DNA from: a virus
Lineage: Duplodnaviria > Caudoviricetes
Reading direction: 5' to 3' (one strand)
Length of the DNA stretch: 64,000 nucleotides
IMG/VR virus record: IMGVR_UViG_3300025018_000142
Span: 10,353 to 74,352 of that record
The translations under genes were made by a program, and so were the position numbers. Of the stretch, positions 1-64,000 are shown in pieces (the first letter of the stretch is position 1; each line of letters begins with the position of its first letter). The notes under the pieces are model-generated. The model was not told where the DNA came from. It did not search any database and saw nothing but the letters and a program-made list of their open reading frames with translations.

Positions 1-1
1 G

Positions 2-1036
2 GACTGTGCATTTGACCGGATACTGAAGGGAGAGCTCGGATTCTTTTCGGGCAGGTACTCAGCAGTTATCAAGTGGAGCAAAAATCAACACTTGTGGGAA
101 GAGTGGGGTAAGCTTTTACAGCTAGACATCAGGCACAAGGATAAAAAGCTCAGTATATCGGAATCCTTTTACACAAAGAATAAAGAGAAGATGATGGAGG
201 GTGTGGTGGTCTTGTGGGAGCAGCACCGTAACTACAAATACCTCATGTATCAGTTCTACACGGAAGGAGCCACGTCTTTCTACAAGGAAATGCAGAATGA
301 CCCGAAGAGCACCCGTTCTGGCTTCTTCACTCCGCACTTCAGGAAGATTTTGCCAGAAGAGGTAAAACAAATGGTTCGGTACTGCGTGGTGGACCCGTCT
401 TTGGGAAAGGTTATGCCTTCGGCTATAGTCGATTTTGGGTTCAATATCAAAGGCGGAAGCGGTGTCTGCTCGGTATTCGATGCTTCAATTAAGCATCGAA
501 ACCCGGACGTACTGATTCTGGCGGTTATCGACCACCTCAGACGGCACGACATTCATACTCTTATCATCGAAACAATACAATATCAGGACTTTCTGCGTAT
601 GGTTATTGACGAACGGCTCAAAGCGCTCAAGATGAAGGTGTTAGTACTTCCCTTCCACAGCTCTGAGCAGAAGGAATCGAGAATCGAGGCGCAACAACCG
701 CTTATCAATACGGGCAGAGTCGAGTTTGACGAATCTTTGAAGGGAAAGCAGATGGGTATAGAGCTTTTCTCTTATCCTGCCAGTCAGTTTGTGGACGGGC
801 TAGATGCTTTATCTATGGGGATTATTAAAGTCAAGGATAGTATCATGGGATTTGGCGATATGCAGGTGGTGAAAATACGAAATGACTTGCTTTATATTAC
901 AAACAACTATAAAATTGACAGTGAAGGCAGAACTCCTGTCATGAGGAAACTTATGGAGCAGAAGAAGCGCTTGGAAAAAAATAAAATGCGTGAGGCTCTG
1001 AGCATCAAAGATGAACAAATTGAAAGGAATGAATGA
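2..1036 (+). CDS. terL: Terminase large subunit, C-terminal nuclease part (5'-truncated by window)
   Basis: Frame is open from base 2 (track starts at 92). RNase H-like motifs VVDPS, IETIQYQ, DGLDALS; directly upstream of a portal. Confidence 0.75.
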   Translation, partial: DCAFDRILKGELGFFSGRYSAVIKWSKNQHLWEEWGKLLQLDIRHKDKKLSISESFYTKNKEKMMEGVVVLWEQHRNYKYLMYQFYTEGATSFYKEMQNDPKSTRSGFFTPHFRKILPEEVKQMVRYCVVDPSLGKVMPSAIVDFGFNIKGGSGVCSVFDASIKHRNPDVLILAVIDHLRRHDIHTLIIETIQYQDFLRMVIDERLKALKMKVLVLPFHSSEQKESRIEAQQPLINTGRVEFDESLKGKQMGIELFSYPASQFVDGLDALSMGIIKVKDSIMGFGDMQVVKIRNDLLYITNNYKIDSEGRTPVMRKLMEQKKRLEKNKMREALSIKDEQIERNE

Positions 1037-3374
1037 CGAGGAAAAGTACACGACCGCCCATGCGGATGTCAGAAAGTTCAAGGAATTTAGAGATAGCGAG
1101 ACAGTCCTCTACGAAGAGGGGCTCGAGAAAATGTGGGACTTAACCCGTAAGCGGGCTATACAATACTCAAGGGTCCATACTGATGAGTTCGGGCGCGAGA
1201 GATTTAATACCAAGTCCCCGTATATAGCGTCTACAGTTGACGCGTTCATGGCCGAGTATACTAAGCGCAACCTTTCTTATGTTTTCAGCGAGCGTGTTCC
1301 CGTTGCGAATACGGACAGACTCTTTTTAACCAATGCTGTATTTAACGCACTGATGTTCAGTAGATATAAGCTCAAAGAGAAATTGTTTCCGGTCGTTAAA
1401 GACGCTGCCACAACGGGCATGGCCTATGTGAGCGTAGGTTACTCTTACCGCGCCAGAGATGTAAGCCTGTTCAAAGACAACGCGTGGGAACTCTGGAAGA
1501 AAGGCGATAGGGATATTTTCAAGAAGAAAGAGATTGTCGATTACGATGGTGTAGAGATTACCCCACTCGCTCCAGAAGATGTTTACTTCTCGTGGGATGG
1601 AACTGACTTTGGTACAGGGAACGGGTATATCTCAAGAGCCGCGGTTATCCGATACATGGACCTAGATGAACTGAAGGACCAGCTTAAAGGGAATCCGTTT
1701 AGCAAAAACCTAGAGTCAATGAAAGCGCAAGGTTCCATGATTAACGATGGCAACATCTTCCAACCGATTAGAACAAACAAACACTTCGACAATATGGACG
1801 AAGTAATCGACTACTACGACCAACGCCAAGACTTATACTTGATATTGGCCGGCGGAAAAGTGGTGCTCGAAATGCCTATTCCAAACAGTATCAAGCGAAT
1901 CCCGATTGTGGCTATCAAGCCTTTTCCTATTCAGTATTCACCGTGGTCGCTTGGCTATGGAGCGAAATTACTCTCTACCTCAGATTATTACGAGAAACTT
2001 TATGACGCAATTCTTGAAGGTGTTAGTTATTCTCTTATGGATATTTACGCTACTTCTCCGCAATCTCACGAGCAATTAGTAGACGGGTATCTTAATGCAG
2101 ATGGTGTTACCTTCATTCCACTTGAGGGTGGCTCCGACAGTGTCAAGCGGCTCGATAAGAGCAACTTACCTATTGCAGAAGTGTCGAAGGTACTGCAAGA
2201 CATGGAGAAAGAAGCGGTCTTAAAGACAGGCGTGGACCAACGAGCGATGGGATTTGCAACGAAGTCGGCAACGGCAACTGACGCAGCGCTCAACAAAGAA
2301 GCAACCACCGCCATGCTCGACTTACCGTTCATGCAGATTCAGCACGCAATTAGCCAGATAGGGGAATTGTCATACTGTATTATTAAAGATTTTATGGCTA
2401 TTCCAGAGCTGCTCGCTAAAAAGGTACAGGAAAAAGAAACGCTAGATAATAGCAAGATAGTGCCTGTTGATGGAGTTGAAGTAATACAAAACGAGAGTGG
2501 CGAGTATATAGTGACAAAGAAAAGTGGCGTAAAGGCTAGTGTCGTATTGACAAAGGAATTATTCGATTTTGATATGGACCAAATAGAAGTGCACGCTGAG
2601 GGCGTACCTTCTATGTCAAAAGGAATGCAGATGAAAAAGTCTGAAGAGTTGTTTGCTTTGGCCGCTCCTTACGCCGGAGACACATCAGCACCTCCCGTGC
2701 AGGGACAGCCAGCACCTTATATCGAAATGAGAGACCTACTTAGGGCAACCTTCAAGTCGCACGATTACGACATCGGCTTGATTGCGAACAAGGGCGGCAC
2801 TATAGAAGAAGCAATTAAACGAGCGTATATCCAACAGGACTCGCTCAAGAAAGGAGAACCGGTAGAACCGATGCCGGGTGAACCGCCACAACACGTTGAA
2901 ATTCACGAGAAGGCACTTGCTATTGGTAGGCAAAAACTAGAGCAACTGGCAGAAACCGCCGAGAACATGGAGGATTTATCAATCGTTACTGAATATCTTG
3001 ATGCGCTACAGGAACACACGGCAGGAGATACCATGCAACCAGCAGAGTTCTTTGCCCAGAATAGTGGAGACGAACAAACGACTCCCGGACCTGACGGGAC
3101 CACGCCACAAGATATGTTACCAGCAGGAGAGATAGGAGCCGAGGGAATGCCGCCAGAGATGCAGGGCATGACGCCTCCAATGGACCAGGTAGCCACGGTG
3201 TCTACAATGGACCCAGGCGAGGCAATCCGTAAAATGATGGCAAATGGGAGACCAGACATGGCACAAAACCCGATGCAAGCCGGAGTCGGTATGCCAATGC
3301 AAGATAACGCAATCAGTGGTAATCAACGGCTACAGTCGGAAGATGCTGGGGGAATGTTACCCCCGAACATGTAA
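1011..3374 (+). CDS. Portal protein (P22/podovirus-like) with Pro/Met/Gln-rich C-terminal tail
   Basis: 787 aa after terL; internal pattern (PEDVYF, IPIVAIKPFP..YSPWSLGYG, TGVDQRAMG, TAT) resembles P22-like portals. Confidence 0.75.
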   Translation: MNKLKGMNDEEKYTTAHADVRKFKEFRDSETVLYEEGLEKMWDLTRKRAIQYSRVHTDEFGRERFNTKSPYIASTVDAFMAEYTKRNLSYVFSERVPVANTDRLFLTNAVFNALMFSRYKLKEKLFPVVKDAATTGMAYVSVGYSYRARDVSLFKDNAWELWKKGDRDIFKKKEIVDYDGVEITPLAPEDVYFSWDGTDFGTGNGYISRAAVIRYMDLDELKDQLKGNPFSKNLESMKAQGSMINDGNIFQPIRTNKHFDNMDEVIDYYDQRQDLYLILAGGKVVLEMPIPNSIKRIPIVAIKPFPIQYSPWSLGYGAKLLSTSDYYEKLYDAILEGVSYSLMDIYATSPQSHEQLVDGYLNADGVTFIPLEGGSDSVKRLDKSNLPIAEVSKVLQDMEKEAVLKTGVDQRAMGFATKSATATDAALNKEATTAMLDLPFMQIQHAISQIGELSYCIIKDFMAIPELLAKKVQEKETLDNSKIVPVDGVEVIQNESGEYIVTKKSGVKASVVLTKELFDFDMDQIEVHAEGVPSMSKGMQMKKSEELFALAAPYAGDTSAPPVQGQPAPYIEMRDLLRATFKSHDYDIGLIANKGGTIEEAIKRAYIQQDSLKKGEPVEPMPGEPPQHVEIHEKALAIGRQKLEQLAETAENMEDLSIVTEYLDALQEHTAGDTMQPAEFFAQNSGDEQTTPGPDGTTPQDMLPAGEIGAEGMPPEMQGMTPPMDQVATVSTMDPGEAIRKMMANGRPDMAQNPMQAGVGMPMQDNAISGNQRLQSEDAGGMLPPNM

Positions 3375-3375
3375 C

Positions 3376-7133: not shown

Positions 7134-7150
7134 CAGTAACTAGAAAGTAG

Positions 7151-7190
7151 CTACACAGAGAGGGGAGATAAGGCTCCCTTCTTGTGTGGG
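7151..7190 (+). terminator. Hairpin, likely terminator
   Basis: CACAGAGAGGGGAG..CTCCCTTCTTGTG stem after ORF 6294-7133. Confidence 0.45.
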
Positions 7191-7241
7191 TATTAACCAC
7201 TTAATTTATTAAGGAAGCGAGTAATCCTCAAGCTCGGCGAT

Positions 7242-7589
7242 ATGGGAGTGAATTATAATAGTCGCGGAAGAGTTGCCCCAGAGGTTGTCGAATACAAGTC
7301 ACTGGGAACTGATGCGGCAATATCTGTTGCAATAGCACCGGTACACAAATTTAGAATACTGAACATTACGGCACATGGTGCATCTGCTGTTACAGAGCCT
7401 TTAACTTTGACGCTAAATGCCTCTCAGGGAGCCGCTTACGATACGGTTCTATATTCCGATGCCACATGGACAAACCTGTTTAAGAAAGGCGAACCGTCAG
7501 AGGTCTTTGAGGCCGGGGACTCCTTAACTCTTGGTTGTACGAACTCGGCTATTGTCAAAGGTGTAGTCGTAAGAATAGAACTCCTCTAA
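7242..7589 (+). CDS. Putative virion protein
   Basis: 115-aa beta-rich ORF in the structural cluster. Confidence 0.55.
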   Translation: MGVNYNSRGRVAPEVVEYKSLGTDAAISVAIAPVHKFRILNITAHGASAVTEPLTLTLNASQGAAYDTVLYSDATWTNLFKKGEPSEVFEAGDSLTLGCTNSAIVKGVVVRIELL

Positions 7590-7623
7590 GTGGGGAATAA
7601 CCTAAGTTTGACTACAATAGAAT

Positions 7624-10206
<2,583 letters not shown>

Positions 10207-22132: not shown

Positions 22133-22133
22133 T

Positions 22134-22559: not shown

Positions 22560-22583
22560 GAGCGAAAGGTGGTAAAATAATAA

Positions 22584-23144: not shown

Positions 23145-23169
23145 ATTGAATTAAGAAGTACAATAGAAC

Positions 23170-23781: not shown

Positions 23782-23782
23782 T

Positions 23783-37879: not shown

Positions 37880-37883
37880 ATTT

Positions 37884-39615: not shown

Positions 39616-39633
39616 AAACAATTATACAATAAA

Positions 39634-40305: not shown

Positions 40306-40346
40306 ATTGTTCTGGCAGGTAAAATTATTTCTTCAAAAAGAATCAC

Positions 40347-40481: not shown

Positions 40482-40508
40482 TCTACTAATCTTAACCCAC
40501 AACTATCA

Positions 40509-41396: not shown

Positions 41397-41410
41397 GGCA
41401 ATAATGAAGA

Positions 41411-41868: not shown

Positions 41869-41933
41869 ATCTTCTCGATTATATTAAGGTAGGAAATAAT
41901 GTGCTCTAAAGTTAAATTCATCATATCTTCTTA

Positions 41934-42671
41934 CTACAAATCAGTCAACAAAATTCCCGTTATTGCCATATTGTCATTCATGGCCCACGTGAACGGAGAA
42001 GTGTTTTGAATATAGGCGTTAGCATAGGTAGGGTACACAAAGGCAGCGGAAGTGAATGCTCCAAACCCATAAGGAGCTGTGCCGGAATCATCCCCCCTCG
42101 CACTCATCGAACTCACAGCCGCACCGGTGAACGGAAGTGTGAAACTCCATATTCCTGTACCAAACGTGGTTGCACTCCCCGCAGACCAGTTAATAATAAT
42201 AAGAGCAAACTTCCCTTGCAAATTGAACTTCCCCGTCAGAACCCCATTGCCTAATACCGGCGGAGTACCTGATGTAGCCCAATTCGGAGTGTAGGAATGA
42301 TAGGCAGGAAATCCTAGTGGATTCTCCACACGCGAATAATAATTAGCTGATATTGCAGCATTAGCAACAGTATAATTAGTCCCGCCTGTTACCGTCAGTA
42401 GCGTACTCGTGACCGCAGTAACATAGAAATACTTTACCGTTGTTTGAGTAAATTTTATCTTGTCACCCACCTTGTACTTTGATGTGGCTCCGGTTGGAAC
42501 AGTGATAGTTGTGGCAGAAGCATAAGTCCATGTTTCATTAGCAGGAATCCAACCAGTTTCGATATTATTAATGGCCGTATAGAAACCAGCATCATTTGTA
42601 CCCAATAGATTCCACTTCGCAGCGGTAGGTACTTCGAAAGCTACAACAGACCATGCATTATAACCAGTCAT
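41934..42671 (-). CDS. Tail fibre / receptor-binding-like protein
   Basis: Thr/Gly/aromatic-rich; last gene of the siphoviral tail cluster. Confidence 0.65.
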   Translation of the reverse strand: MTGYNAWSVVAFEVPTAAKWNLLGTNDAGFYTAINNIETGWIPANETWTYASATTITVPTGATSKYKVGDKIKFTQTTVKYFYVTAVTSTLLTVTGGTNYTVANAAISANYYSRVENPLGFPAYHSYTPNWATSGTPPVLGNGVLTGKFNLQGKFALIIINWSAGSATTFGTGIWSFTLPFTGAAVSSMSARGDDSGTAPYGFGAFTSAAFVYPTYANAYIQNTSPFTWAMNDNMAITGILLTDL

Positions 42672-43916: not shown

Positions 43917-45393
43917 TCATATCAGTTCCGCCAACGGCGGATACCCCTATTGTAAAGTAATTAGAATTATCAAGCAATTTTCCGACAGTAACAATCTGCG
44001 TAAACTTCCCCGGTAATCCAATCCGATTAATAATCTTAATCACTCTGAATACTTCAATCACTCCATTCAAATCGATTCTCACGGCATCTCCTAACTGTAA
44101 CGTCATATCACCCTTAATTTCCAACTGCTTTATTTCTCCAACATCAGTAAAGGTATGCAGAATAATCAACGCTTTACTTTGTGCATTATCCACATCACCA
44201 AAGAAATCATTATTGATCGATAAAATCTTTTCTCCATATTTATCAACTGAACTCGAATCTTCCTCGCGAATATAAATATCCTGAACAGGAACTGCAGGGG
44301 TGGCAAATATAACGACACTCGTCACCCATAAATCAGCACTTCCGTTGTTAGTGAATACCAACTGCAAAGAAGTATCGAATAAATACGAACTCGACAACAC
44401 AACACTACTTGAAGCAACCCCCGAACCATCTTGAAGCGTATTTACTTCATAATATGAGGTTTTCTTGCTGGTAACATAAACAGGATCAACGGCACTCGTA
44501 ACAGGTTCCTGAAAACTAATCCATATTGGAACACTCTGACCATGAAGAATCTGAATAGGCTGTGTCAATTGACCGTACATCTGCAAAGATTGAACCTCAC
44601 GAATCTTCCCCTCAACAACAACAACATTCACTAATTCATCATTACTTTTAGGCACTGAATTAACAATATTCCTATATGAATCCAAATACATCTTCACATC
44701 GGAACTATACCCCTGTCTGTTTTTAAAGGTGATTGCCCCATCTTCATCCATAAATAGTCTTCCGCCTTCTGCTTCCATTAACTTGAAAACAAGATCCCCC
44801 AAAACCTCTCCTTTTTTTGCATAGACAAACGGTATTCGATTAAGCCCGACATCGAGATTCATTTGCACATCCAATACTCCTTGATCATTGAACAAAGTCC
44901 TCAATATCTCATCGGTTCTCTTGTCTATAAACATTGATGATTCATCCAGCGGTTTCTTTAAGAAATAAGATAAGAAATCGATTGCATGAAGAATAACGAT
45001 CTTAGATTTCTCATTGACACTAGGCATTCCATCGGTAAGACCAACGAACGACTGTACGACTTCACTTCCGAATCCGGAATATATCTTGACTGGCCTTGCT
45101 GGCAACATATAAATACTCAATACAGAGCTCCCATTTGGAGTGAACAATCCATCATGATTATCTAGAATAATATCCGCCATCCCCGAAGATACAGATGCAT
45201 ACATTTGTTCCTCACGTGTCCATTCAACGTCAACAATACGGCCGCTATAATCTGTATACAGATATTTATCCCAGTCTTGAATTCCTTGCAATGTTGGCTC
45301 TTGGAGTTTAGAGAACGATATAAAAACATCACCTCTAATTGGCCTAGCATCTGAAGTTGCCAATGTTTTGAATAAGACCGAAGTGTTTTGCAT
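43906..45393 (-). CDS. Baseplate hub / Tal-like tail protein
   Basis: 495 aa after the Dit-like gene; EGGRLFMDEDGAITFK and NVVVV motifs. Confidence 0.6.
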   Translation of the reverse strand: MQNTSVLFKTLATSDARPIRGDVFISFSKLQEPTLQGIQDWDKYLYTDYSGRIVDVEWTREEQMYASVSSGMADIILDNHDGLFTPNGSSVLSIYMLPARPVKIYSGFGSEVVQSFVGLTDGMPSVNEKSKIVILHAIDFLSYFLKKPLDESSMFIDKRTDEILRTLFNDQGVLDVQMNLDVGLNRIPFVYAKKGEVLGDLVFKLMEAEGGRLFMDEDGAITFKNRQGYSSDVKMYLDSYRNIVNSVPKSNDELVNVVVVEGKIREVQSLQMYGQLTQPIQILHGQSVPIWISFQEPVTSAVDPVYVTSKKTSYYEVNTLQDGSGVASSSVVLSSSYLFDTSLQLVFTNNGSADLWVTSVVIFATPAVPVQDIYIREEDSSSVDKYGEKILSINNDFFGDVDNAQSKALIILHTFTDVGEIKQLEIKGDMTLQLGDAVRIDLNGVIEVFRVIKIINRIGLPGKFTQIVTVGKLLDNSNYFTIGVSAVGGTDMIAP

Positions 45394-45764
45394 TATGAAA
45401 AAGCAAACTGCTCAGTAACGTTAAGCTTAAAGTCTTTAATGATGACCGCATTGTACTTAAGTTGTTGAGCGCTAATATCGAGAAGCACGGGGGCATTAAT
45501 TCCGAATGCAGGAATCTGTAAAATAGGGAATGTGTGGTATGTAAAGCGCCATAAATAATAGTTATAGATGACATCGAAGTCCGAACGCATTAGATTGTCC
45601 CAGCTTATTACCCAAGAACGCCGTATATTCAGAAAATCCGTATACAAAGTACCCCCTAACGTTTCATTTACCGTCTCGTGTGCCTTGTAGTCACGAGTAC
45701 AATTCGAATAGTTAGCCAGCTTCTGGCCATTAATATAAATCGACATATCTAATGCTTCGTTCAT
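45393..45764 (-). CDS. Distal tail-like protein
   Basis: Directly after the tape measure; TLGGTLYTD...RRSW.ISW pattern. Confidence 0.55.
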   Translation of the reverse strand: MNEALDMSIYINGQKLANYSNCTRDYKAHETVNETLGGTLYTDFLNIRRSWVISWDNLMRSDFDVIYNYYLWRFTYHTFPILQIPAFGINAPVLLDISAQQLKYNAVIIKDFKLNVTEQFAFS

Positions 45765-45768
45765 TCTA

Positions 45769-47571
45769 TCAACGTATTATCTTAACTTGTGGCCCATTTG
45801 CCCTCAATGCCTGATCAACTACTTCTTTGATTCTAAAACCAATTTCACGTAGCTCACCTGCACTACTCGCAAGTACGCCCGTGAGAGGTATCGTCACATT
45901 GGTAACCTGCCCCGCAGAAAGGGATCCCTGCCTTCCCTCAACAGCTCCTGAAACTGTTTTCACTGCTCCCGCCATGCCCATTCGATTCTGGGCCGAAATT
46001 GAGGCTAATTCCGTAAACATGTCTGCGTAAGTATTTGTCATTTCGTTTGCGCCCTTATGTATCCAGTCAACTAAAGAAGGAGAATGACGTACAAATGGAT
46101 TAAGTGCGTCATTAATTTTCTTCTTAATCTTGGTCATTAAATAATTCAAGTCATCCCAAGCCTTCCAAAACGGCTGCATTATCGCGTTATAAATGTTCTT
46201 TATTGCTTGCGTAATGGAGTTGGGCAAGCCTGCAAACCATCCCACCACTTTTGCAGTTCCGTCTTTTATTCCCTTCCACATTGAGTTAAACCGATCAATC
46301 GAAAGGGTTACACTCTTAATGACAAGGCCAATCACGTAAACAATGGCCAAGAAAGCTGCGTACAAAACAACACCGATAACCTGTGCTATAAACTTCAATA
46401 CAGGTATTAATATAGGCGATAGGATGTCCCACAATTTCTTAAGTGCAGGAATTAGCCCATTTTTACCAACAAACGCTTCCTTTAAATTGTTAAGTGCAGG
46501 AATTAGTGTTGGAGATATAATGTCCCACAACTGTTTGAGTGTTGTCTTTACGGCCTTCATCAGATTATCCCAGCCACCGAATTTGTCAACGAGTAACTTG
46601 AGAGCTAACCCAAGGAGTGCACCAACGGCGATAAAGGGAAGAAGAGGAGCCATTGTGGCCCATAAACTCGCAGCCAGTGCTGTTAATGCTGGGAGTAATG
46701 CGATTGTAATTGCTCCTGCAACCATATAAAGCGCTGCCTTATTATCGTCAAGTAGATTGTTAAAATAATCCCACACCGTTCCATCGCCAAGTATATTATC
46801 CATTAACTCAACTAATTGTTCCTTGAAAGGAGTAAGTCCATTATCGATGGCCTCCCCAATCTGTTCCTGAATATTGCCAAACTGTACTCCAAGATGCGCA
46901 TCGAGACCCTGGGATGTTTGCATTGCTACTTCGTTTGTAAATTTTAAGTTTTGTGCAAAGCCCTTGGTGATTGCTTTGACTTTGTCTGATTCTTTCCCGA
47001 ACTGAATCATCTTCCTTTGCGCATCAGTGAAGCGGATACCTGACTTTTCCAGTACTCCGAATTGACCGTTAAGTGCTTTTGCAATCATATTCGCCGACTG
47101 TGCAACCTGTTCACCAGAAGCATTTACGCCGAACTGATTTACCGTTAAGTCAGCAAGCGATCCTCCCAAGTTTTGTACTGCCTTATTCGTAAGTCCAAAT
47201 GTGGAAAGCTGTGCAAGCCCCGTTTTAATCGCATCATCATCAAGGACTCCTTTTGCAGACAATCTTTCAGCGAGGTATCCTGTCTGTTTTAGCTGTTCTT
47301 TTGTAGCCTTTGATACGCCAATAACTGCGTGTTCCAACTGTGCCTGTGCGGTTTGAGAGTCTTGGTAAGCAGCAACGGATTTAACCCCGAATGCGACAAT
47401 CCCAACTGCGAGTCCCGTAACACCGGCAAGAAGAGCATTCGAACCTTGCTCGGCGTCTTTAAACGAGCCACGAAGTCCACCCATTAAGCCTCTTGCTTTG
47501 GTAACTTTACCTTCAAATTTTTTATCTTGAAGATCTAAATCGTAGTGTACTCCTCCTATTGATTCTGACAT
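45769..47571 (-). CDS. Tape measure protein
   Basis: 600 aa, helical, hydrophobic middle and W/F-periodic repeats; follows the tail chaperones. Confidence 0.85.
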   Translation of the reverse strand: MSESIGGVHYDLDLQDKKFEGKVTKARGLMGGLRGSFKDAEQGSNALLAGVTGLAVGIVAFGVKSVAAYQDSQTAQAQLEHAVIGVSKATKEQLKQTGYLAERLSAKGVLDDDAIKTGLAQLSTFGLTNKAVQNLGGSLADLTVNQFGVNASGEQVAQSANMIAKALNGQFGVLEKSGIRFTDAQRKMIQFGKESDKVKAITKGFAQNLKFTNEVAMQTSQGLDAHLGVQFGNIQEQIGEAIDNGLTPFKEQLVELMDNILGDGTVWDYFNNLLDDNKAALYMVAGAITIALLPALTALAASLWATMAPLLPFIAVGALLGLALKLLVDKFGGWDNLMKAVKTTLKQLWDIISPTLIPALNNLKEAFVGKNGLIPALKKLWDILSPILIPVLKFIAQVIGVVLYAAFLAIVYVIGLVIKSVTLSIDRFNSMWKGIKDGTAKVVGWFAGLPNSITQAIKNIYNAIMQPFWKAWDDLNYLMTKIKKKINDALNPFVRHSPSLVDWIHKGANEMTNTYADMFTELASISAQNRMGMAGAVKTVSGAVEGRQGSLSAGQVTNVTIPLTGVLASSAGELREIGFRIKEVVDQALRANGPQVKIIR

Positions 47572-47580
47572 AGTTCTTTA

Positions 47581-48308
47581 TTACCTCTGATTAAATGCTT
47601 TTTTTATTTCTTCGGTAGTCGACTGATTTTCCTCAGATAAATCTAGTATATCATCTGTGCGACTTTTGAACGAGTCCAACACCTCTTTGCCACTGCCTTG
47701 CTCTAAATGCGGAAAGCTCACAACTGCCATATCAGTCAGTCGTATTCCTGCATCGACAGCGTAGGATTCGTTAAGTAGTGTAAAAAAAACAAATGCCGAT
47801 TCATTCATGAGCGAATCGTATGTATATCCTGGATAGAAATGAAGAAACCAAGCTATCTCACGGATGAGATTGTAGCTTTTTTTTTATGAGTGTTTACCGA
47901 GATTCCTCTTCGTTCGAGTTCCTTAAGCTGTGCCGGTTTCGCAAGTCCCATGGCAACAGTTACAACCGACATGAGATTATCAATTGACAGCTCATACCCT
48001 TTAATTGCGGGGATAATCGCCTCAATATTATTGATGAATTCTTCAACGAGATCTAAAGTTTCCTCTGCATTAAGCGTGCCGCCTTTTTCGTTTTTCCTGT
48101 CTGATGACACTTTTTTCCACTTCTTCATCATTGTGCCCAGCCTGATTAACGACTGCAGTGAGGGGGATGTGAGAATTACAGTATCGCCTTCTACATTTTG
48201 CTCACCTTTTTTTATACGAGCTTTTTGATTATCATTCAAAGGCATACGGATGTGTGCTTGTGGTTGTTCTACTGTTGAGAGGTCTAGATCTATGTGTTGG
48301 TCAGCCAT
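47581..48308 (-). CDS. Tail assembly chaperones G / G-T (programmed -1 frameshift)
   Basis: G = 48308-47853. At CAT AAA AAA AAA (A9, 47885-77) the -1 frame is open (SYNLIREIAWFLHFYPGYTYDSL) into ORF 47808-47581. Confidence 0.85.
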
Positions 48309-48319
48309 ATTTCTATTGG

Positions 48320-48847
48320 TTAAGAAATATCTTCATCACCAATTCGGCCAAGGATTGTTCCTTCTGGTTGTGTTTCATCTACTAAGGCCTCAAATGTCGA
48401 TTCAAAGACCAATTGTTCGTCAACTTTAAATGGTAATTCGACTGATTCGCCTGCAGAGACTGCTTTGAATAGATAAATATCTTCTGAACGATCAGATGCA
48501 ACCAAACGATTAGGATGTAAACGAATAAGTCCTGCACCTGCGAGTAGTGAATATCCTGCACTACAGCCGAAGCCTAACTTATCATCACCGCCTCCGTCTG
48601 TATAAGCACCTTCTGGGAGTACTTTTGTGAGGATTGCTTCGACTGGTTCTGCAAGAATAAGCTTCACTTTGGCACGCGTACCAACAATAACTTTGTCGAC
48701 TGGAGTATCTCCCCACTTATCGACTGTCATATCGACAATTTTTCGTTCAATAGTTAAGGTGCTTCCACCTTTTGTGTGGCCCAATGAGATTTCTTTGAAG
48801 AATGCCTCGTATGCGCCAATTCTTAGGTTGTTTGTATTTAGTGCCAT
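48320..48847 (-). CDS. Major tail (tube) protein
   Basis: LGHTKGGSTL...TVDKWGDTPVDK pattern; precedes the chaperones. Confidence 0.75.
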   Translation of the reverse strand: MALNTNNLRIGAYEAFFKEISLGHTKGGSTLTIERKIVDMTVDKWGDTPVDKVIVGTRAKVKLILAEPVEAILTKVLPEGAYTDGGGDDKLGFGCSAGYSLLAGAGLIRLHPNRLVASDRSEDIYLFKAVSAGESVELPFKVDEQLVFESTFEALVDETQPEGTILGRIGDEDIS

Positions 48848-48857
48848 AAATTTTGTT

Positions 48858-49256
48858 TTATGAAATTAACCCTGTGATAATAAATACTACACTAAGCTTC
48901 AACATTTTTCTACCCTCACCGTCACGGTCAAGATCTAGTATCTGGCCAGCACAATATGAGAAGTGAACAGTGTAAGAGTCAGTATTATAGTGATGTTTCT
49001 GATGTAGGTAGTCGTAAATGGCTCTCAAATAGTCGCTCGCCACCTTCGCATTTTTGAACACTGCCCAGAAATCTAGAGTGTGGTACTCAACTGCAGTGTA
49101 TCTATCCGGCTCCGGGGATGCTCCCTCAACTACGAATACGCCATCAATGCCACGAACCAGCTCGCCAACCTTTACGTTCGAATCACCCGGGCCGAATGTC
49201 AAACCGGGGATATTTGGTGCTAGTAACGTGCAAAGGGCAAATGCAAATGATTCCAT
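48858..49256 (-). CDS. Tail terminator-like protein
   Basis: Position and size in the siphoviral neck cluster. Confidence 0.55.
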   Translation of the reverse strand: MESFAFALCTLLAPNIPGLTFGPGDSNVKVGELVRGIDGVFVVEGASPEPDRYTAVEYHTLDFWAVFKNAKVASDYLRAIYDYLHQKHHYNTDSYTVHFSYCAGQILDLDRDGEGRKMLKLSVVFIITGLIS

Positions 49257-49262
49257 GTTTTA

Positions 49263-49637
49263 TTATACTGATTTTCTAAATTTCTGCACAGCTTGTTTTA
49301 GATATTCGAGTGCATTCTTCTCTAGGTAATCGCCAGCCTTGCGTAAGAAACCCTTACCAGTATTCGGCGTTGAGTACTTTTTCACAATATGCGTGCCGTC
49401 TTTTCGCTTCCCGGCCTCCTGATAAGCAGCATAAGGAGTTTCAACTTTGATACGATGTTTCATTATATCGAGCCGTTCGTGCGTTGTATTATCCGAAAGT
49501 TTGCCGGTTTCACCAATAGGCACGGTTTGTTTCACTTTCAGAACGCCATCGTCTGCCATAGTTGATAATGCTGAGTCCATGACACCTTTGTTTTTTCTAA
49601 CAAACTCTTCGGATCTGTCCGTAAAGATGAGGCTCAT
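49263..49637 (-). CDS. HK97 gp10-like neck protein
   Basis: VP..TGKL ... TPYAAYQEAG ... FLRKA. Confidence 0.65.
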   Translation of the reverse strand: MSLIFTDRSEEFVRKNKGVMDSALSTMADDGVLKVKQTVPIGETGKLSDNTTHERLDIMKHRIKVETPYAAYQEAGKRKDGTHIVKKYSTPNTGKGFLRKAGDYLEKNALEYLKQAVQKFRKSV

Positions 49638-49960
49638 GATATATTCACATCGGTTACCTTTAGATCGGCTTTCACAAACTGTACCTCTGTTTCACCTAAT
49701 CTTCGTGCGAAAGTAATTCGTTCGACTTGATAGTAAGTACCCTCGAAATTGATAATCGAACCTTTTACGACACTGGTTGTTGGAGCAAGGTGCAGTAACG
49801 CATCAGAATCCAGTATCTCTTGCTGTGGCGCTCTTCGAAGAGTTGTTATTTCCCTAAATCTACAAGCCTCAGCAACACGGGACACCTCAGTATAGTCGCT
49901 ATATTCGTTGCGACCCATCGTTATAACGTAACACGCTTGTACTAAGTATTCTTCGAGCAT
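49634..49960 (-). CDS. Head closure (stopper)-like protein
   Basis: 108 aa; GS.I.FEGTYYQV pattern; position. Confidence 0.55.
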   Translation of the reverse strand: MLEEYLVQACYVITMGRNEYSDYTEVSRVAEACRFREITTLRRAPQQEILDSDALLHLAPTTSVVKGSIINFEGTYYQVERITFARRLGETEVQFVKADLKVTDVNIS

Positions 49961-50550
49961 TATATTAATATGTCATCCTTTATGTAACCGGCCAATATGG
50001 CATCAATTATATCTTTTTTAGTTGATAGTTCACCCGATGCCAATGAAACCGCAAAGGCCCTACTGTAGCCCTCGATTCCTTCGGACATTAACTTACCATT
50101 CATACCCTCTACCACCATGCCAGAGACTAGGGTAGTCGCAACGAACTTAATGTCATCTGGAAGTGCACCCAGAGAAAACTTAGCTGTAACAGCAATACGA
50201 GCAAGGCCTGCTGGAAAACAACCCGATCGGCTTTCTAGCCATGTTTTAATGTCATCATTTTGTGGGAGTGCTTCGTATTGCTCGTGAAGAATATATGTGT
50301 CGACTTCAGTTAAAGAACTATCAAGCAATTTCACACTAGAGATATCGGTACAAGGGTCAATATCAATAATCTTACTTCCCCCCGGATAATACATCGTGGA
50401 AAGTGACGGAGTTGTATCGAATGAACTGCCAGTATAACTGTCAATGTAGGCCTTTACTGCTGCAAGCCAGCTTGGAAGCATGACGAGTTCGTTTGCGGTT
50501 AATACCCTTTTTATCTGAGCCTCGATGTCCGCCTGAGTTGTGTAATCCAT
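49960..50550 (-). CDS. Head-tail connector (adaptor) protein
   Basis: YTTQADIEAQI...AVKAYIDSYTG...LPDDIKFVAT pattern. Confidence 0.7.
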   Translation of the reverse strand: MDYTTQADIEAQIKRVLTANELVMLPSWLAAVKAYIDSYTGSSFDTTPSLSTMYYPGGSKIIDIDPCTDISSVKLLDSSLTEVDTYILHEQYEALPQNDDIKTWLESRSGCFPAGLARIAVTAKFSLGALPDDIKFVATTLVSGMVVEGMNGKLMSEGIEGYSRAFAVSLASGELSTKKDIIDAILAGYIKDDILI

Positions 50551-50643
50551 TTTTCTTTTTACCTTTAGTTAATTCAGGCTCGAGAATAGCAGAATGATAA
50601 ATGTCGCTCTTCTTAAGCATTCTCTATTATGCCACATAAGTAG

Positions 50644-50680
50644 AAAAAGGGCAGAGCTAATTAAAGCCCCACCCCAGTTC
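50644..50680 (-). terminator. Intrinsic terminator after MCP
   Basis: Minus strand GGGGTGGGGC..GCTCTGCCC followed by TTTTT. Confidence 0.5.
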
Positions 50681-50700
50681 TATCCTTAATCGCCGATTAC

Positions 50701-52002
50701 TCAGCTTACCGTCCCAGTACCGACAACAACAAATTCCTCTGGGAACTTGTGCATCACAACCATTCTTACGGTTGCTCGGAGTGCAGTCATATCCTGTTTG
50801 AAGAGGTTTATGCTTACACCGTCTGCGTCAGTAACTGTTGCGTGTCGTGATTCCAAGAACTCGATCCCTCGCTTTCTGTAGAGACGAACTCGCTTCAAAT
50901 CACCGAATACTGCGTAACCTTCGTTAGCATCTCCAATGTCAGTGATTGCTGGCATTGCATCAACTAATACGATACGAGTACCCCATGGTGTTTGCATACC
51001 CATCGACGGGAGCCAGAGATAGTGACCATCAGTTCCTTTGCACTTTCTGATAACGTTCCAGAATGATTTATGCATGTACCAACTACCAAGCTGCATTGTT
51101 CTGGTTGACACCATCACTTCTGCATCAAGTAGGTTATCCCAAATAGCATCTGTTGGGTTTGCACCGATCGTTACTGCTTTAGTTCCGGCAATATGCAAAA
51201 TACCTTCTTTGTTAGCGGTTCGGTCAGTGAAGACCATTATGTCTGCAATACGAGCCATTTCTTCTGCAAAGCCATCTTGTACATCCATCCAAAAGTCGAG
51301 CGCTGCATCTTCGATAAGAAGGTCAGATGAAATTGCATACCCTGCAAATTCACGAAGCTCAACCAATACCTGTTCGATCCCGAGTTTAGAAGCAGCCTTA
51401 ATTCCACCTTCTGCAACTTCGGCCATGACTACATTACTACCACGCTTATTAGACTTGATAGCATTTCTATCTGTTGGTCGGATAGTTGCTTCTGAGAATG
51501 CGATACCGTAATTCAAAGCAATCTTCTCAATTGCAACTTCGAATTCAGGATCCATAATCAAGTAGCCACCATCTGCATCAACCGTTTCGTTGTTATATCC
51601 TGCTTTTGCACGTAGCTCTAACGCTTTCGTGTTCCACTCGACTAAGCTTTTCTTCTCAGCCTTCATGCTGACAAGGTCAATCGCTGCTCGTGTGAAATAG
51701 AGGAACTTAGTAACACCAAAGTCTGCGCCTTCATCGGAAGCATCTTTGATTTTCTTGTCCAAGACACCTTCAATTTTTTCAAGTTTCTTCATAAACTCTT
51801 CGTTCGCTGCTTTTACTGCCTCAACTGATTTCGCAGTGATAGCATCAAGTGCTTCATCGGTAACTTCAATGTCACCAGACTTCGCTTTCAATGCTTCGAG
51901 GTCAGATAATTCTTTTGCGTCTTTAACGCTTAATTCGAGACCTGCAACTTTAGCACTTTGTAATGCTTTTAGTCTCGCCAACTGTTCTGCTGTGAGTTTC
52001 AT
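50701..52002 (-). CDS. Major capsid protein, HK97 fold, with N-terminal delta domain
   Basis: DADGGYLI.PEF, S.DLLIED, W.MH...W..I.K.K..DG.YLW, VFGDL motifs. Confidence 0.9.
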   Translation of the reverse strand: MKLTAEQLARLKALQSAKVAGLELSVKDAKELSDLEALKAKSGDIEVTDEALDAITAKSVEAVKAANEEFMKKLEKIEGVLDKKIKDASDEGADFGVTKFLYFTRAAIDLVSMKAEKKSLVEWNTKALELRAKAGYNNETVDADGGYLIMDPEFEVAIEKIALNYGIAFSEATIRPTDRNAIKSNKRGSNVVMAEVAEGGIKAASKLGIEQVLVELREFAGYAISSDLLIEDAALDFWMDVQDGFAEEMARIADIMVFTDRTANKEGILHIAGTKAVTIGANPTDAIWDNLLDAEVMVSTRTMQLGSWYMHKSFWNVIRKCKGTDGHYLWLPSMGMQTPWGTRIVLVDAMPAITDIGDANEGYAVFGDLKRVRLYRKRGIEFLESRHATVTDADGVSINLFKQDMTALRATVRMVVMHKFPEEFVVVGTGTVS

Positions 52003-52008
52003 TTGTTT

Positions 52009-52773
52009 TTATTGTTTAGAACTTAATATAACCCGCCTTATTGTCGGTTGTTCATCCTTGGCATCAATGTGCTCTGCAGGTTTCGCTCCCTCCAACATAC
52101 CTACTAATTCTTTAAGATTTACTAGGTACTTATTTCTATCATTCTCTGATAGTCGACTGACCTTGTCAAGAGCAGCTGCTTTACTAAGCGCGTCTGAATA
52201 CTGCTTTTTGAACTCAGATCGTGATATTCCAATGCTTTCAAAGTCTGATTTCTTAAATGCTGACTTGGCCATAACGAGTGCATCAGGATTCGCTCCAACA
52301 GGTACTACTGAGAGTTCAACCATTTCGAGCTGCTTAATTACTGTAAAGTCATCGTTCCACTCTCGAACAATACCGCCGATTGAAACTGCGTTAATATACC
52401 CACCGAGCACCATCTGGTATACGGTATTTGCGAACTCGTAGATGTCGTAAGCAAAGTGGATTCTAGCCATAAGGTTTCCTGCGTCTTTCCATAGTTTCGT
52501 TATCTTTCCTATTGAAAGGTCTGAGTATTCGTGCGCCCATAATACGGTTGGATTGCGCTTTATTTGCGATGTATCAATTCCGTTAACGACAATCTTCTCA
52601 CCGTGACGATCTAGAGTTGCATTGCTGACAACTACATCAATCTCACCTTCGCCCAAATCTGCACTTGGCGCTGCTTTTGATTTCGATTCTAATCCCTTTG
52701 TAACAGCGACAACCTCAATACCTGCAGTCAGGTCGACTCTCTCATTAACTTTCTTTTTCATTTTGAACGGCAT
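52009..52773 (-). CDS. HK97-type prohead protease
   Basis: DRHGEKI, VLWAH, IGK, AVSIGG, ELSVVPVGANPDA. Confidence 0.9.
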   Translation of the reverse strand: MPFKMKKKVNERVDLTAGIEVVAVTKGLESKSKAAPSADLGEGEIDVVVSNATLDRHGEKIVVNGIDTSQIKRNPTVLWAHEYSDLSIGKITKLWKDAGNLMARIHFAYDIYEFANTVYQMVLGGYINAVSIGGIVREWNDDFTVIKQLEMVELSVVPVGANPDALVMAKSAFKKSDFESIGISRSEFKKQYSDALSKAAALDKVSRLSENDRNKYLVNLKELVGMLEGAKPAEHIDAKDEQPTIRRVILSSKQ

Positions 52774-52930
52774 CTTTTTCGTAATTAATTAAGCTTGCTC
52801 CCATCAATCCTTCGCTAGTAACGAAGTTGATTGTCACAAGTCGTTTACAACCGTGGCACATCACCTCAATATTAGCAATTTTTGCTTTGAATAACAATTT
52901 TTTACAGTTCGGGCAATAGACGTTTTTCAT
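52745..52930 (-). CDS. Com-like zinc-finger protein
   Basis: YCPNCKKLLFK...IEVMCHGCKR. Confidence 0.7.
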   Translation of the reverse strand: MKNVYCPNCKKLLFKAKIANIEVMCHGCKRLVTINFVTSEGLMGASLINYEKDAVQNEKES

Positions 52931-54984
52931 TTGATTGGTACCAACCTACATTTACAATGAGGATGTAAGTCCGCATAACTTACATCAGCATAATCGTTAT
53001 TATATTCACCACCATCTTTGCCGGCAACGCTTCCACCTTCAGGAACAAACGGAGTTCCAATATCTACTTCTTGGCCAGCCATCGCCTCGCAGAATTCACA
53101 AGCATCTGGGTTTGGTTCCCAAGCGAGTCGAGTATAACCTTGGTCTTTATAAACCTCTGCATTAGCAAAATTGACTGTTTTGTGAACCTCTGTATCAGCA
53201 ATTCGTGTAGCTCTAAATCCCTTCGCCTCAGAATAGACGTCACCTACTCGTTGCGTTATTTGCTCGATCGGTTCACCTTTTTCTAGACCCTGAGAAATTT
53301 GCTGTTGTAAGAGTCGAGTAGTATCAGCGTTAAAAGACTTCATTAAACGTTCTGTGGAGTTGAATATCCCATTACGCTGTGCTTGCTGTAGTATGAATTC
53401 TGCTGATGGTTTGCCTAGTGCTTCAAGAGCTGTTTCACCCGATTTCACGAACGCACTGAGTAGCCATGCGACAAGATTTAGCGATACCTCTTCATCACTA
53501 AACTCCAATTCGAAATGAACGCCATCGTATTTTACTCCCTTTTCAATGCTCTTAGACGTATAGCGCTCTACCAAAGCAATGACTTCTTTCTTCTGTTCGT
53601 CAAGTAAACTTCGAAGTCCCCTGCGCATGAGGTTCGAGCTGTTGGCCTCAAGCTTATCTAGTGCTAAAAAGAGGTTTCTTCGTGCCTTTTCAGCTGTATG
53701 AATATGCTTGTGTTTATGTTTTAGCGATTTTGTCGGTGCAACTGCAGGTTGTGCTTCATTAGCAACTTCAAGCGGTGCGTTTGTGAATGGAACATATAAC
53801 ACATCTCCACCCAGAATAGGTGCGAGTCCTTTCTGTTGTCGCACTTCGTTTCGTGTCATCCACTTATCAACTGCAGCAACGTTCTCGGCGAGCATTGAGG
53901 CTTCATCCTTAGGAATACGAGAGACGTGGCCTACTCTAGTGTCTGTTTCGCCCCAATATCTTCGAAGTAGGGTAGTTAATGCATCATCATAACGGTTATA
54001 AATAGGGTCAATTGTACGTTTTGCGTAGATGTATTCAATAGCCTCAATGCCGGATCGACCTAATCCGCTTCCCGGTGCTGTACCTAATATTTCCATTGGC
54101 ACTTTAAAGAGGGTTCTGATTCTCTCGTTGTTAACACGAGTAAGTTCCGGTATTTGGATGTCAGTAAGTGAAAGTCCCACCTTAGTAAACTCGGTTTCAG
54201 AGGCTCGTACAAAGACTGTCTTTCCAGCGTTATTAGCGCCAGTATATTTCTCCTTCCATTGTTCCTGAATCTTTTTAAATGCTTCCTTAGAGGCTTTACC
54301 TTTAATCGAGAGAATACCCGCAGGTGCTGCTTGATTCTTAAGAACTCCCCATTGGAATAATGATGTTTCGTTTTCAATATCAACGTATAATTTTCCGCCT
54401 TCGACAGGGCCGAAGCCTCTCGTTTGGTCAGTAGGACTGAATATCTTGAGGTGTAGAATTTCATTAGGCTCAAATGGTATATCATCACCCTTCGAGGTTC
54501 TATAAACATAACCGACAATAACGCCTTTATCTATTGCAATACTCATTCTATCCGGCCTCATAACTGCAGAAATATACTTTGGTCTGCCTGTCACTTGCCC
54601 AACAACAATGTAAACAAACGCTTCTCCTGTTAGATCTAGATAAGTCTGTGTAGCCTCAAATAGCTCATACTGCGAAAGTTCTGTGTTTGGATTCTCGAAT
54701 AGTTGAATAAGCGGATGGTCTTTTACACGCACATGTTCCCCATTAACCGTTTGACTCGGTCGATATACATAGGGTTCGTATTGCGCTACATCCTGCGCAC
54801 GTGTAGTGATGCAGGAGTAAACTAGACCACGATATTCCTCGAGTAGTTTGCGCTTCGAAACCGCTCCCCGCGACCAGTCCCCGAAAATGCTAAATGCTCC
54901 ACCTTCCCCCATTGGATACCATCCCATTGTATCCTGAATTGCTTTACCTATAGTTTGAAATATATTCATATTTGTTTTATCCAA
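52927..54984 (-). CDS. HK97-type portal fused to a Mu gpF / SPP1 gp7-like domain
   Basis: Portal motifs (HPL..LF.NPN, GEAF, EILHLK, MTRNEVR) then RATRIADTEV..W...ACEFC...LHPHCKC. Confidence 0.85.
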   Translation of the reverse strand: MDKTNMNIFQTIGKAIQDTMGWYPMGEGGAFSIFGDWSRGAVSKRKLLEEYRGLVYSCITTRAQDVAQYEPYVYRPSQTVNGEHVRVKDHPLIQLFENPNTELSQYELFEATQTYLDLTGEAFVYIVVGQVTGRPKYISAVMRPDRMSIAIDKGVIVGYVYRTSKGDDIPFEPNEILHLKIFSPTDQTRGFGPVEGGKLYVDIENETSLFQWGVLKNQAAPAGILSIKGKASKEAFKKIQEQWKEKYTGANNAGKTVFVRASETEFTKVGLSLTDIQIPELTRVNNERIRTLFKVPMEILGTAPGSGLGRSGIEAIEYIYAKRTIDPIYNRYDDALTTLLRRYWGETDTRVGHVSRIPKDEASMLAENVAAVDKWMTRNEVRQQKGLAPILGGDVLYVPFTNAPLEVANEAQPAVAPTKSLKHKHKHIHTAEKARRNLFLALDKLEANSSNLMRRGLRSLLDEQKKEVIALVERYTSKSIEKGVKYDGVHFELEFSDEEVSLNLVAWLLSAFVKSGETALEALGKPSAEFILQQAQRNGIFNSTERLMKSFNADTTRLLQQQISQGLEKGEPIEQITQRVGDVYSEAKGFRATRIADTEVHKTVNFANAEVYKDQGYTRLAWEPNPDACEFCEAMAGQEVDIGTPFVPEGGSVAGKDGGEYNNDYADVSYADLHPHCKCRLVPIK

Positions 54985-56401
54985 TAAAAGCTATATCATC
55001 CGCAGTAGTGATTTGAGAATTATCAGCGAAAGTCAATGCTGCAGAGTCTGCGACATCTGGCGAACTCGCTTTAATTCCTAAGTCTTTCATGACCTTCTTC
55101 AAATCTTCCTTTGGCTGTATTTTAAATCGGCGTTCACTATCGCTTTTATAGTTTACACTGAGTAACTCTAAAAATCTATCATCTTTCACAATTCTTCCAC
55201 CCTTCTTAAGCCATCGCAGCAATCGATAATACATGTACGCACGCATGTTAATGAACTTGTCTGACTCATCTTCGGGTGCAGATTGACCAAACATTATCGC
55301 ATTAATTTCCATTCCCTTTTCTTTGAGACGATCGCTTACTCCTTGGCCTAATCCACCAGCATCGAGTGAAATATCAAAGTCCTCCAGCTCATACTTCTTC
55401 GCAATGTCCTCAACAATAGGTACTTGTTGCATTGTATCGGCAATTTTATTAGTGCTGTGAAGCCACATAACTTTCTTGGTGCGCAGAACATAAGAGCTTC
55501 TGTCGTTACCACCACCAGCAAAGTCACCACCGAGTCGCTTTCTAAACTTAAACATTCCCTTTTCTTCTGCTTCTTCACGGGTAATCCACGACTTTTCAAG
55601 TAGCTCCTCGGGGATTAGTACTTGATATCCACCCGTAAGTAGATTGTTTCTGTCGGGGAACTTACACTCGTAAAGAACATCAAAGAATGCTTCCTCTCGC
55701 ATTTCTTCAATAAAGTCAGCGGAGTAGCGGCCCTCTCGCAGTGCCTGTTTATAGTCAATGAATATTCTGTTGTAGTTGTGATTGTTCCAGCTACGATAGA
55801 AATGATTACGATAGAACGGATTACCAATCTTTAAGAGGAACTGGTCTTTATGGCCACCGAGCATACGTAAAACCATCGCCTGTACATCATCAGGAACAAG
55901 CGATGCTTCATCTTCAATAATATTAGGGCTTCCGAAACCAGTTAATGCTTCTCGCACGGCTTGGCTGTTCTTTGTATTTGCAGTGAATGCTTTAATAGCT
56001 CCACCGCCTTTGAATGAGAGTGAATCCTTTGTGCGCTCCCTGCGTAATCTATCGAGGGGCATATTCGCATCGAGTTCGAGTAGAGTAAAGAAGCGTGGAT
56101 GGTCGAATGCATGTTGAATAACACGTCCCATTATAATCATCGACTTATCCATCTGCCCAGAAATGATAGCAAAACGCTCGTTAAAAGTGGTAACACGCAT
56201 CAGGAGAGCCATTGCAACCGTATCAGATTTACCATACTGAGTAGCAGCAATCACCTGATTACGTGGAAATTTCCTCGTGAAGATTATCATAAATAAGTCG
56301 GCTTGCCCATCTGTCAGTATAAATGGATCACCGTTATCGTTCTTGAAGAACGTTTTTACTAGGTCTTTAGCTGTCTGTCGGGCTATCAGGAGTGGTTCCA
56401 T
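54977..56401 (-). CDS. terL: Terminase large subunit
   Basis: ATQYGKS (Walker A), IIEDEA (Walker B), GGDFAGGGNDRS nuclease motif, SPDVADS. Confidence 0.9.
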   Translation of the reverse strand: MEPLLIARQTAKDLVKTFFKNDNGDPFILTDGQADLFMIIFTRKFPRNQVIAATQYGKSDTVAMALLMRVTTFNERFAIISGQMDKSMIIMGRVIQHAFDHPRFFTLLELDANMPLDRLRRERTKDSLSFKGGGAIKAFTANTKNSQAVREALTGFGSPNIIEDEASLVPDDVQAMVLRMLGGHKDQFLLKIGNPFYRNHFYRSWNNHNYNRIFIDYKQALREGRYSADFIEEMREEAFFDVLYECKFPDRNNLLTGGYQVLIPEELLEKSWITREEAEEKGMFKFRKRLGGDFAGGGNDRSSYVLRTKKVMWLHSTNKIADTMQQVPIVEDIAKKYELEDFDISLDAGGLGQGVSDRLKEKGMEINAIMFGQSAPEDESDKFINMRAYMYYRLLRWLKKGGRIVKDDRFLELLSVNYKSDSERRFKIQPKEDLKKVMKDLGIKASSPDVADSAALTFADNSQITTADDIAFIG

Positions 56402-63089: not shown

Positions 63090-63339
63090 GCTTGTTTGTC
63101 AGTAATTTAGTGATATCCTTCATTGCATCGATGTATCCGTCAGCTCTCATTAGGTCTGCCATTTCAATATTCCCTGCCAAACGACCAGATTTGATTTTTG
63201 CTTCTTTGAGCGCAACTAGTCTTTGCATTGACTTCAGAACCATAAGTCGCATTTCTAGCTTTCCGATTACCTTTGCAACAACGAATGCGAAAAAGAAGGC
63301 TGTGATTATTAGCAGATACGATATAAACAAATTCTGCAT
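63076..63339 (-). CDS. Small membrane-anchored hypothetical protein
   Basis: N-terminal TM segment; TAATG overlap with upstream ORF. Confidence 0.55.
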   Translation of the reverse strand: MQNLFISYLLIITAFFFAFVVAKVIGKLEMRLMVLKSMQRLVALKEAKIKSGRLAGNIEMADLMRADGYIDAMKDITKLLTNKREQD

Positions 63340-63617
63340 TATGGAAGGACTTTAATCTTAACACCTAGAGCAACAGCAACTCTGTAAAGAGTTCGCCAAC
63401 GCTCAAATAAGTAATCCCCACGGATCCATTCAAATAGACTTGGTTCACTAACGCCTGATATTCTTGCCAAATGCCTGACTGTCATCTTCTTTAGTTCCCT
63501 CATCTCAAGGAGTCTGCTAAGAAGTAGGGTATTTATCGCTAGTAAGGAAGCGTCCACTTGCTCTGTGAGCTTATTTCTGCTAGTGTCACTATCTTGTAAT
63601 TGTATACGCTTTACCAT
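63339..63617 (-). CDS. XRE/Cro-type HTH protein
   Basis: REL.KMTVRHLARISGVSEPSLFEWIRG...LYRVAVALG. Confidence 0.75.
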   Translation of the reverse strand: MVKRIQLQDSDTSRNKLTEQVDASLLAINTLLLSRLLEMRELKKMTVRHLARISGVSEPSLFEWIRGDYLFERWRTLYRVAVALGVKIKVLP

Positions 63618-63720
63618 AGTTTAAATATATCACGAATTTTATTCCTAAGCAATTCAAACGGTAATACCAAAATACAGATCAACAGAAAATACCAAGGAAG
63701 AGTTTCTTCTGTTTGCTCAT

Positions 63721-64000
63721 TCATTTCCCCTTTCCCCCAAACTTATCCTCTGCCATGCCCTGCAACTTACGCAATACAGGTACGATATATTTTCTAATGT
63801 AATTTGCTATTTTCTCTTTTTCCACATTCCCATCAAGGAAGCTTAGGACGCTCTTTATATCTTGGTCAAATTGCATAACAGCCTTCTGCTCAGCCTGTGA
63901 AATTAACTGCTCGATGTAGGCTAACAATTCTAGTTTCTCAAATCCAATATAGTCGTATGGCTTATCATCGGAGCCAAGTCTGATACCACTTTTTACAGCC
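63721..64000 (-). CDS. Hypothetical phage protein, copy 2 (5'-truncated by window)
   Basis: Frame is open to the window edge; N-terminal part nearly identical to 32053-32367, C-terminus diverged. Confidence 0.75.
   Translation of the reverse strand, partial: AVKSGIRLGSDDKPYDYIGFEKLELLAYIEQLISQAEQKAVMQFDQDIKSVLSFLDGNVEKEKIANYIRKYIVPVLRKLQGMAEDKFGGKGK

Follow-up and report, generated by a model that had tools for sequence, protein, structure and literature searches.

A 74-kb viral contig that is very probably an assembly chimera of two groundwater phages, joined through a common early-gene cassette

The stretch of DNA analysed here, referred to as the window, comprises 64,000 nucleotides of the Caudoviricetes record IMGVR_UViG_3300025018_000142. 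It spans bases 10353-74352 of one contig of 74,352 bp, recorded as a product of the Joint Genome Institute (JGI) and IMG, and the end of the window coincides with the end of the contig. The public record describes a 74-kb linear virus, which at face value suggests a fusion of two phages or a single phage that carries two virion modules. Our analysis indicates that the contig is very probably a chimera created in silico during assembly, in which two independent phage genomes of the same groundwater/aquifer community are joined. The first, phage A, is podovirus-like and apparently complete at 43,891 bp, with a map that is circular or circularly permuted; the second, phage B, is siphovirus-like and apparently complete at 31,680 bp. 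We do not regard the two-module genome as real, while the direct repeat at which the modules meet is real and marks a cassette common to the two co-occurring phages. The evidence for this lies in the topology of the contig, the exact overlaps at its ends, a step in sequencing depth at the junction, the self-closure of A in samples where B is nearly absent, and separate contigs of the sizes of A and B.

Contig layout and the collapsed segment

When the window was compared with itself, a direct repeat was found between 32073-32320 and 63753-64000 (89% identity over 248 nt, E 5e-88). A preliminary description, made from the letters of the window alone, had reported 144 of 146 identical positions between 32175-32320 and 63855-64000, a perfect match over the last 99 nt and a decay leftwards, all of which was reproduced. 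Read leftwards from the window edge, the repeat passes through 99 perfect nt, two mismatches (32220-32221 versus 63900-63901), 45 perfect nt and a stretch of ~82% identity, and then fades. In the complete contig, the last 99 nt match contig positions 42574-42672 (window 32222-32320) in a run of exactly 99 identities. The first 127 nt of the contig, which lie outside the window, match contig positions 43892-44018 (window 33540-33666) perfectly for exactly 127 nt, followed by abrupt divergence. As both contig termini copy internal sequence, they bracket one segment of 1,445 bp, here called S (Table 1). The order along the contig is the 127-mer of the right end of S, the A loop, S, the B loop and the first 99 nt of S, and the repeats imply that A has a period of 43,891 bp and B one of 31,680 bp.

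Table 1. Features of the window and of the segment common to phages A and B (window positions).
Feature	Position	Strand	Basis or remark
Phage A part in the window (podovirus-like)	1-32221	mixed	A-specific span is contig 128-42573
104-aa gene (A copy)	32053-32367	-	only the 5' part lies inside S
A-side flank, diverged 3' part of the 104-aa gene	32073-32221	-	82% nt identity to 63753-63901
Shared segment S, 1,445 bp	32222-33666	-	bounded by the two terminal overlaps
Inner copy of the last 99 nt of the contig; left graph junction	32222-32320		perfect
381-aa pentapeptide-repeat protein	32379-33524	-	Pfam PF00805, E 6e-40
15-nt tandem array coding for pentapeptide repeats	32672-33165	-	repeat family in self-comparison
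43-aa open reading frame	33532-33663	-	
Inner copy of the first 127 nt of the contig; right graph junction	33540-33666		3 nt upstream of the ATG of the 43-aa open reading frame
Phage B-specific span (siphovirus-like), 30,235 bp	33667-63901	-	gene matches and Logan contig
IS200/IS605-type element remnant in phage B	41400-41884	-	weak Y1_Tnp match and a copy in a metagenome-assembled genome
Terminal 99-nt stub of S	63902-64000		contig end

The period of B bears out the earlier proposal that 32321-64000 covers a single siphovirus-type genome of ~31.7 kb once round, and this genome encodes its own functions for recombination, lysis, tail, head and packaging. The accompanying proposal, that this genome had been spliced into a podophage through a shared small gene, giving two hybrid copies, is not supported. 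The shared piece of ~1,445 bp comprises a 43-aa open reading frame (ORF), the gene for a 381-aa protein and, from a 104-aa gene, its 5' part. Instead of two full direct copies of S, the contig has a single collapsed copy and a 99-nt terminal stub, and A closes on itself in several samples almost devoid of B. Beyond S and the adjoining 147-nt flank, blastn and tblastx comparisons of A with B found nothing in common. The GC content is 43.4% in A and 41.1% in B, and each phage has a separate set of packaging, head, lysis and recombination genes.

The JGI workflow uses metaSPAdes with k = 33, 55, 77, 99 and 127, and both terminal overlaps of the contig (127 and 99 nt) equal k sizes of that workflow. 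Overlaps of exactly these lengths are attributable to graph vertices of those k sizes. SPAdes-type assemblies of circular genomes carry a terminal overlap of k-mer size, and the start of the present contig is likewise repeated perfectly for k = 127 nt, 43,891 bp downstream. Here, however, the second copy is internal rather than terminal because the path continued into B, and for this reason IMG/VR calls the record linear.

The contig probably formed as follows. S would collapse to a single path in the de Bruijn graph, leaving two loops that meet at S. The assembler would begin at the 127-mer of the right end of S, round the A loop, cross S and take the B branch instead of A again, and the path would then round B and halt 99 nt into S. 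The entry of B into S may have been a dead end at k = 127, inherited from the round at k = 99: if the 127-mer coverage of B was low, the path would be supported only to the end of the k = 99 contig, that is for exactly 99 nt. With such a dead end, the graph would consist of a 43,891-bp self-loop on the 127-mer and a 30-kb tail. Taking the loop once and then the sole unused exit would give 44,018 + 30,334 = 74,352 bp and so match the contig exactly.

Chimeric contigs that form through regions common to co-existing viruses are known from viral metagenomes (Roux et al. 2017, PMC5610896). As in those cases, a de Bruijn assembler, here the metaSPAdes of the workflow, would have joined two viral genomes through a highly similar region, with a coverage step at the join and components that are separately recoverable. 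The present case differs in that the genomes are otherwise unrelated (podovirus-like and siphovirus-like) and not strains, and in that both loops were fully traversed, so that the contig resembles a tidy two-module genome.

Sequencing depth and recovery of the two phages

Words from the 10-kb stretch around the junction are present in a series of groundwater/aquifer metagenome runs. Two runs contain nearly all of them and five contain 54-65%, where one phage with S would give ~57-58%; in runs X8-X13 the share is 0.24-0.41. Logan contigs of four runs (X1, X3, X5 and X6) were placed on window positions 22001-42000, and all depths given here are mean k-mer depths of these contigs, not of raw reads. 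In X1, likely the source run, the A side is one contig at a depth of 66.4 and the B side one contig of 30,248 bp at 16.7, extending from 33637 to ~63884. A coverage step at ~32.2 kb had been put forward in the preliminary description as the mark of an assembly artefact, and such a step is what X1 contains. The far end of the B contig aligns to 32073-32204 with 26 mismatches, which identifies it as the B-side flank and hence B as one loop.

In X3, A has a depth of 12, S of 12-13.2 and B of 0-2, and an uninterrupted contig covers 22001-32881. Likewise, X5 and X6 have A at a depth of ~5 and B near 0, and their contigs connect the A side with S. The uncovered parts of B in these three runs were read together with the bridging contigs and the ends that close A, and not as proof that B is absent. 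In both X1 and X6, contigs exit at 33671 into the letters found at contig positions 133 onwards, leading from S to the start of A; the A circle therefore closes on itself.

Separate contigs of both phages were found by exact-sequence look-ups, which located the proteins of A on 6-11 contigs and those of B on 1-3. A JGI contig of 30,481 bp, distinct from the present one, carries residues 50-474 of the B TerL at 100% identity; the B-specific 30,235 nt together with two overlaps of 127 nt would come to 30,489. A contig of 43,632 bp carries the C-terminal 91 aa of the S-encoded 381-aa protein without any difference. Its size falls ~260 nt short of the A period, the outcome to be expected had a short-k assembler opened the A circle in the 15-nt array. 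The content of these two contigs is judged from their size and the protein that each carries. Recovery of the component genomes on their own is thus complete for A and partial for B. Exact-word scans of IMG/VR, among whose searchable records near-identical ones may be missing, gave no match for two junction words, a scan of JGI metagenome contigs gave none for a B-specific junction word or the B TerL, and megablast against the INPHARED phages gave none for either half of the window.

Some of the data sit less easily with a chimera. The S pieces in X1 have depths of 78.2, 78.4 and 69, to be compared with 66.4 for A alone and 83 for the sum of A and B; the excess of S over A is therefore 2.6-12, short of the full 16.7, and the B copy of S may differ in places. 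The 99-nt end is unlike a pure k = 127 graph vertex, and the dead end at k = 99 is an explanation that we infer. Of the four runs with placed contigs, three have A and nearly no B (X3, X5 and X6), and none has B without A. Finally, S, at 1.4 kb, exceeds short reads, so contigs cannot phase its flanks on single molecules, and free A together with a minority A::B cointegrate would yield identical depths.

That last arrangement is the best surviving alternative, although we consider it very unlikely. Under this scenario, B exists mainly or only as a ~75.6-kb A::B molecule formed by homologous recombination across S, and free A is about three times commoner. Recombination proteins do lie beside S in both phages (RecT in A; YqaJ and a putative annealing protein in B), and the want of a demonstrated B-only sample, together with short-read and contig data that cannot phase flanks over 1.4 kb, would be compatible with such a molecule. 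However, a cointegrate requires two full direct copies of S, where the contig has one and a 99-nt stub, and it predicts equal abundance, where the A:B depth ratio in X1 is 4:1 and three samples have A without B. B is also fully equipped by itself for virion formation, lysis and packaging and was assembled alone as the 30,481-bp contig, and the contig ends fall exactly at k-mer-sized overlaps. Moreover, a head built for 44 kb or 32 kb would presumably be too small for a ~76-kb molecule. It is improbable, to about the same degree, that some or all B genomes of the aquifer are intracellular A::B cointegrates made by phage recombinases on the 1.4-kb cassette; if true, a podovirus would be physically united with the siphovirus of a bacterium of the candidate phyla radiation (CPR). 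The preliminary description had offered a cointegrate or a chimera as the two ways of reading the repeat, and it is the chimera that the evidence favours.

A single stable phage genome of ~74 kb with two virion modules has next to no probability. It is the reading of the contig itself and of its IMG/VR entry, which is linear with a CheckV completeness estimate of 75%, and it conflicts with the fourfold depth step at the junction, with the presence of A and S in X3, X5 and X6 where B is nearly absent, and with the directly seen closure of the A circle. Equally remote is the idea of two adjacent prophages in a bacterial chromosome with the repeats as attachment-site duplications, for which nothing speaks beyond adjacency: bacterial flanking genes are lacking and both contig ends copy internal phage sequence, the repeat is a coding segment with gradual decay rather than an att core, the depths are unequal, and neither an integrase nor a tRNA was found. 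The claim in the preliminary description that no integrase is visible was upheld, as no match to the tyrosine (PF00589) or serine (PF00239) recombinase profiles was found in a search whose controls were positive. A tRNA scan and an Rfam scan of the window returned nothing.

The shared cassette

With the contig taken as a chimera, S becomes a near-identical early-gene cassette that, judged from sequence, two otherwise unrelated co-occurring phages would have exchanged recently. It holds three minus-strand genes: the 43-aa ORF, the gene of the 381-aa protein and the 104-aa gene, of which only the first 49 codons are included. The A and B products of the 104-aa gene are 86% identical (74/86). The 381-aa protein has ~24 pentapeptide repeats and a weak DUF7666-like tail. 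Its residues 22-65 give a weak match to MacroD-type macrodomains (best PDB E 3e-5), with no Pfam Macro match at E 0.01 or better. Short-k assemblies break in the 15-nt array of this gene, where Logan contigs stop at 32776/32881 and resume at 33057/33061. A 376-aa variant of the protein, with one pentapeptide fewer, is encoded on a 2,158-bp JGI contig.

Tailed phages are modular mosaics in which gene cassettes are exchanged at gene boundaries, as in the lambdoid phages. The two boundaries of S differ in kind: the right one is abrupt, 3 nt upstream of the ATG of the 43-aa ORF, and the left one decays within the 104-aa gene. An abrupt edge at a gene start together with a decay inside a homologous gene is what cassettes exchanged naturally between phages usually show. 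S thus resembles lambdoid-type mosaicism in being a near-identical cassette in otherwise unrelated genomes, with one abrupt and one decaying boundary. It differs in that the partners are uncultivated and of different virion types, and in that the identity of its interior is deduced from the collapsed assembly, from which the B copy would be near-identical over its whole length. With a near-identical segment, genomes without other similarity and boundaries at or inside genes, S has the properties of a natural mosaic cassette, likely swapped by recombination between phages with the same host.

Two contigs of X6 depart from the layout of this region in A. One low-depth contig links 31787 to 33394, omitting 1,606 nt, among them the 104-aa gene and the greater part of the pentapeptide gene, and another omits 31657-31750. 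At depths of 3.9-5.1, and with 30-34 letters on the shorter side of the junction, they hint at variants of phage A that may lack the cassette.

The two phages and a host lead for phage B

The late genes of A lie on the plus strand up to ~28543 and its early genes on the minus strand at 28479-32221. Profile matches identify a TerL (phrog_38), a Mu gpT-like/Phage_capsid_4 capsid protein, an 860-aa collagen-like fibre and an endolysin-like protein, and a RecT and a DnaD-like loader are encoded within the 10.3 kb of the contig upstream of the window; in A, RecT lies beside S. In B, profile matches identify a tape measure, an HK97-type capsid protein, an S78 prohead protease, a portal, a TerL and an Amidase_2 endolysin, and its recombination genes beside S encode YqaJ and a neighbouring PHROG-3657 protein. 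These matches confirm both virion sets of the preliminary description; the labels 'nozzle', 'ejection proteins' and portal in A, and TerS in B, are without Pfam or PHROG matches. A search of IMG/VR for related loci gave none for the A portal and, for the B portal, only relatives of 22-25% identity on short contigs.

At 28504 and 29800, contigs of X1, X3 and X6 match the window rightwards and continue into unlike sequence to the left, which suggests alternative versions of the late/early boundary region of A. On the B side, matching contigs of all four runs extend to 34492, 8 nt from the start codon of YqaJ at 34500, and then continue into unlike sequence. The stretch 33667-34492 is covered in X3 (depths of 6.6 and then 2.2 in two bins) and X6 (5.8 and then 9.9), where the remainder of B is almost uncovered. 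The YqaJ gene beside S may thus sit in a third genomic context.

A lead to the host of B comes from the remnant of an IS200/IS605-type insertion sequence (IS) element, whose tnpA in B has an internal deletion of ~80-90 nt and whose N-terminal tnpA piece in the window has a weak Y1_Tnp match. Both tnpA pieces are 97.5-98.6% identical to positions 7142-7715 of a contig (L004; PFQB01000054.1) in a metagenome-assembled genome (MAG) of Candidatus Dojkabacteria (WS6, CPR). The full copy of tnpA in the MAG codes for 134 aa (Y1_Tnp, E 1.6e-33), and the IS element has 25 matches at 98-100% in this ~1-Mb genome, many of them at contig ends. A 251-nt piece of the IS element has depths of 752, 139 and 362 in X3, X5 and X6, respectively, where B is nearly absent.

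In addition, a 12.6-kb contig from another genome of the class of this MAG (L018; G089:C13:1-12575) is colinear with window 44071-55735. It shares ~35-65% amino-acid identity with the tail-to-TerL module of B and has no credible similarity to A. The A capsid protein was absent from the 201 genomes of the class that were searched; the A portal had only a 23% relative, and no host is proposed for A. On links between Dojkabacteria and phages, PMC6389311 contained nothing relevant. B probably infects a CPR bacterium, with the IS element that is multi-copy in a Dojkabacteria genome as the host lead.

Given the above, the record would be corrected to two genomes of 43.9 kb and 31.7 kb, and the CheckV estimate probably says nothing useful about a chimera in which each genome is apparently complete. 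The case also illustrates a simple diagnostic for chimeric contigs, namely internal copies of both contig ends at k-mer size. The biology that remains is modest: an early cassette with a macrodomain-like pentapeptide-repeat protein that is common to two unrelated phages, and a host lead for one of them that concerns the CPR, a group with little-known phages.

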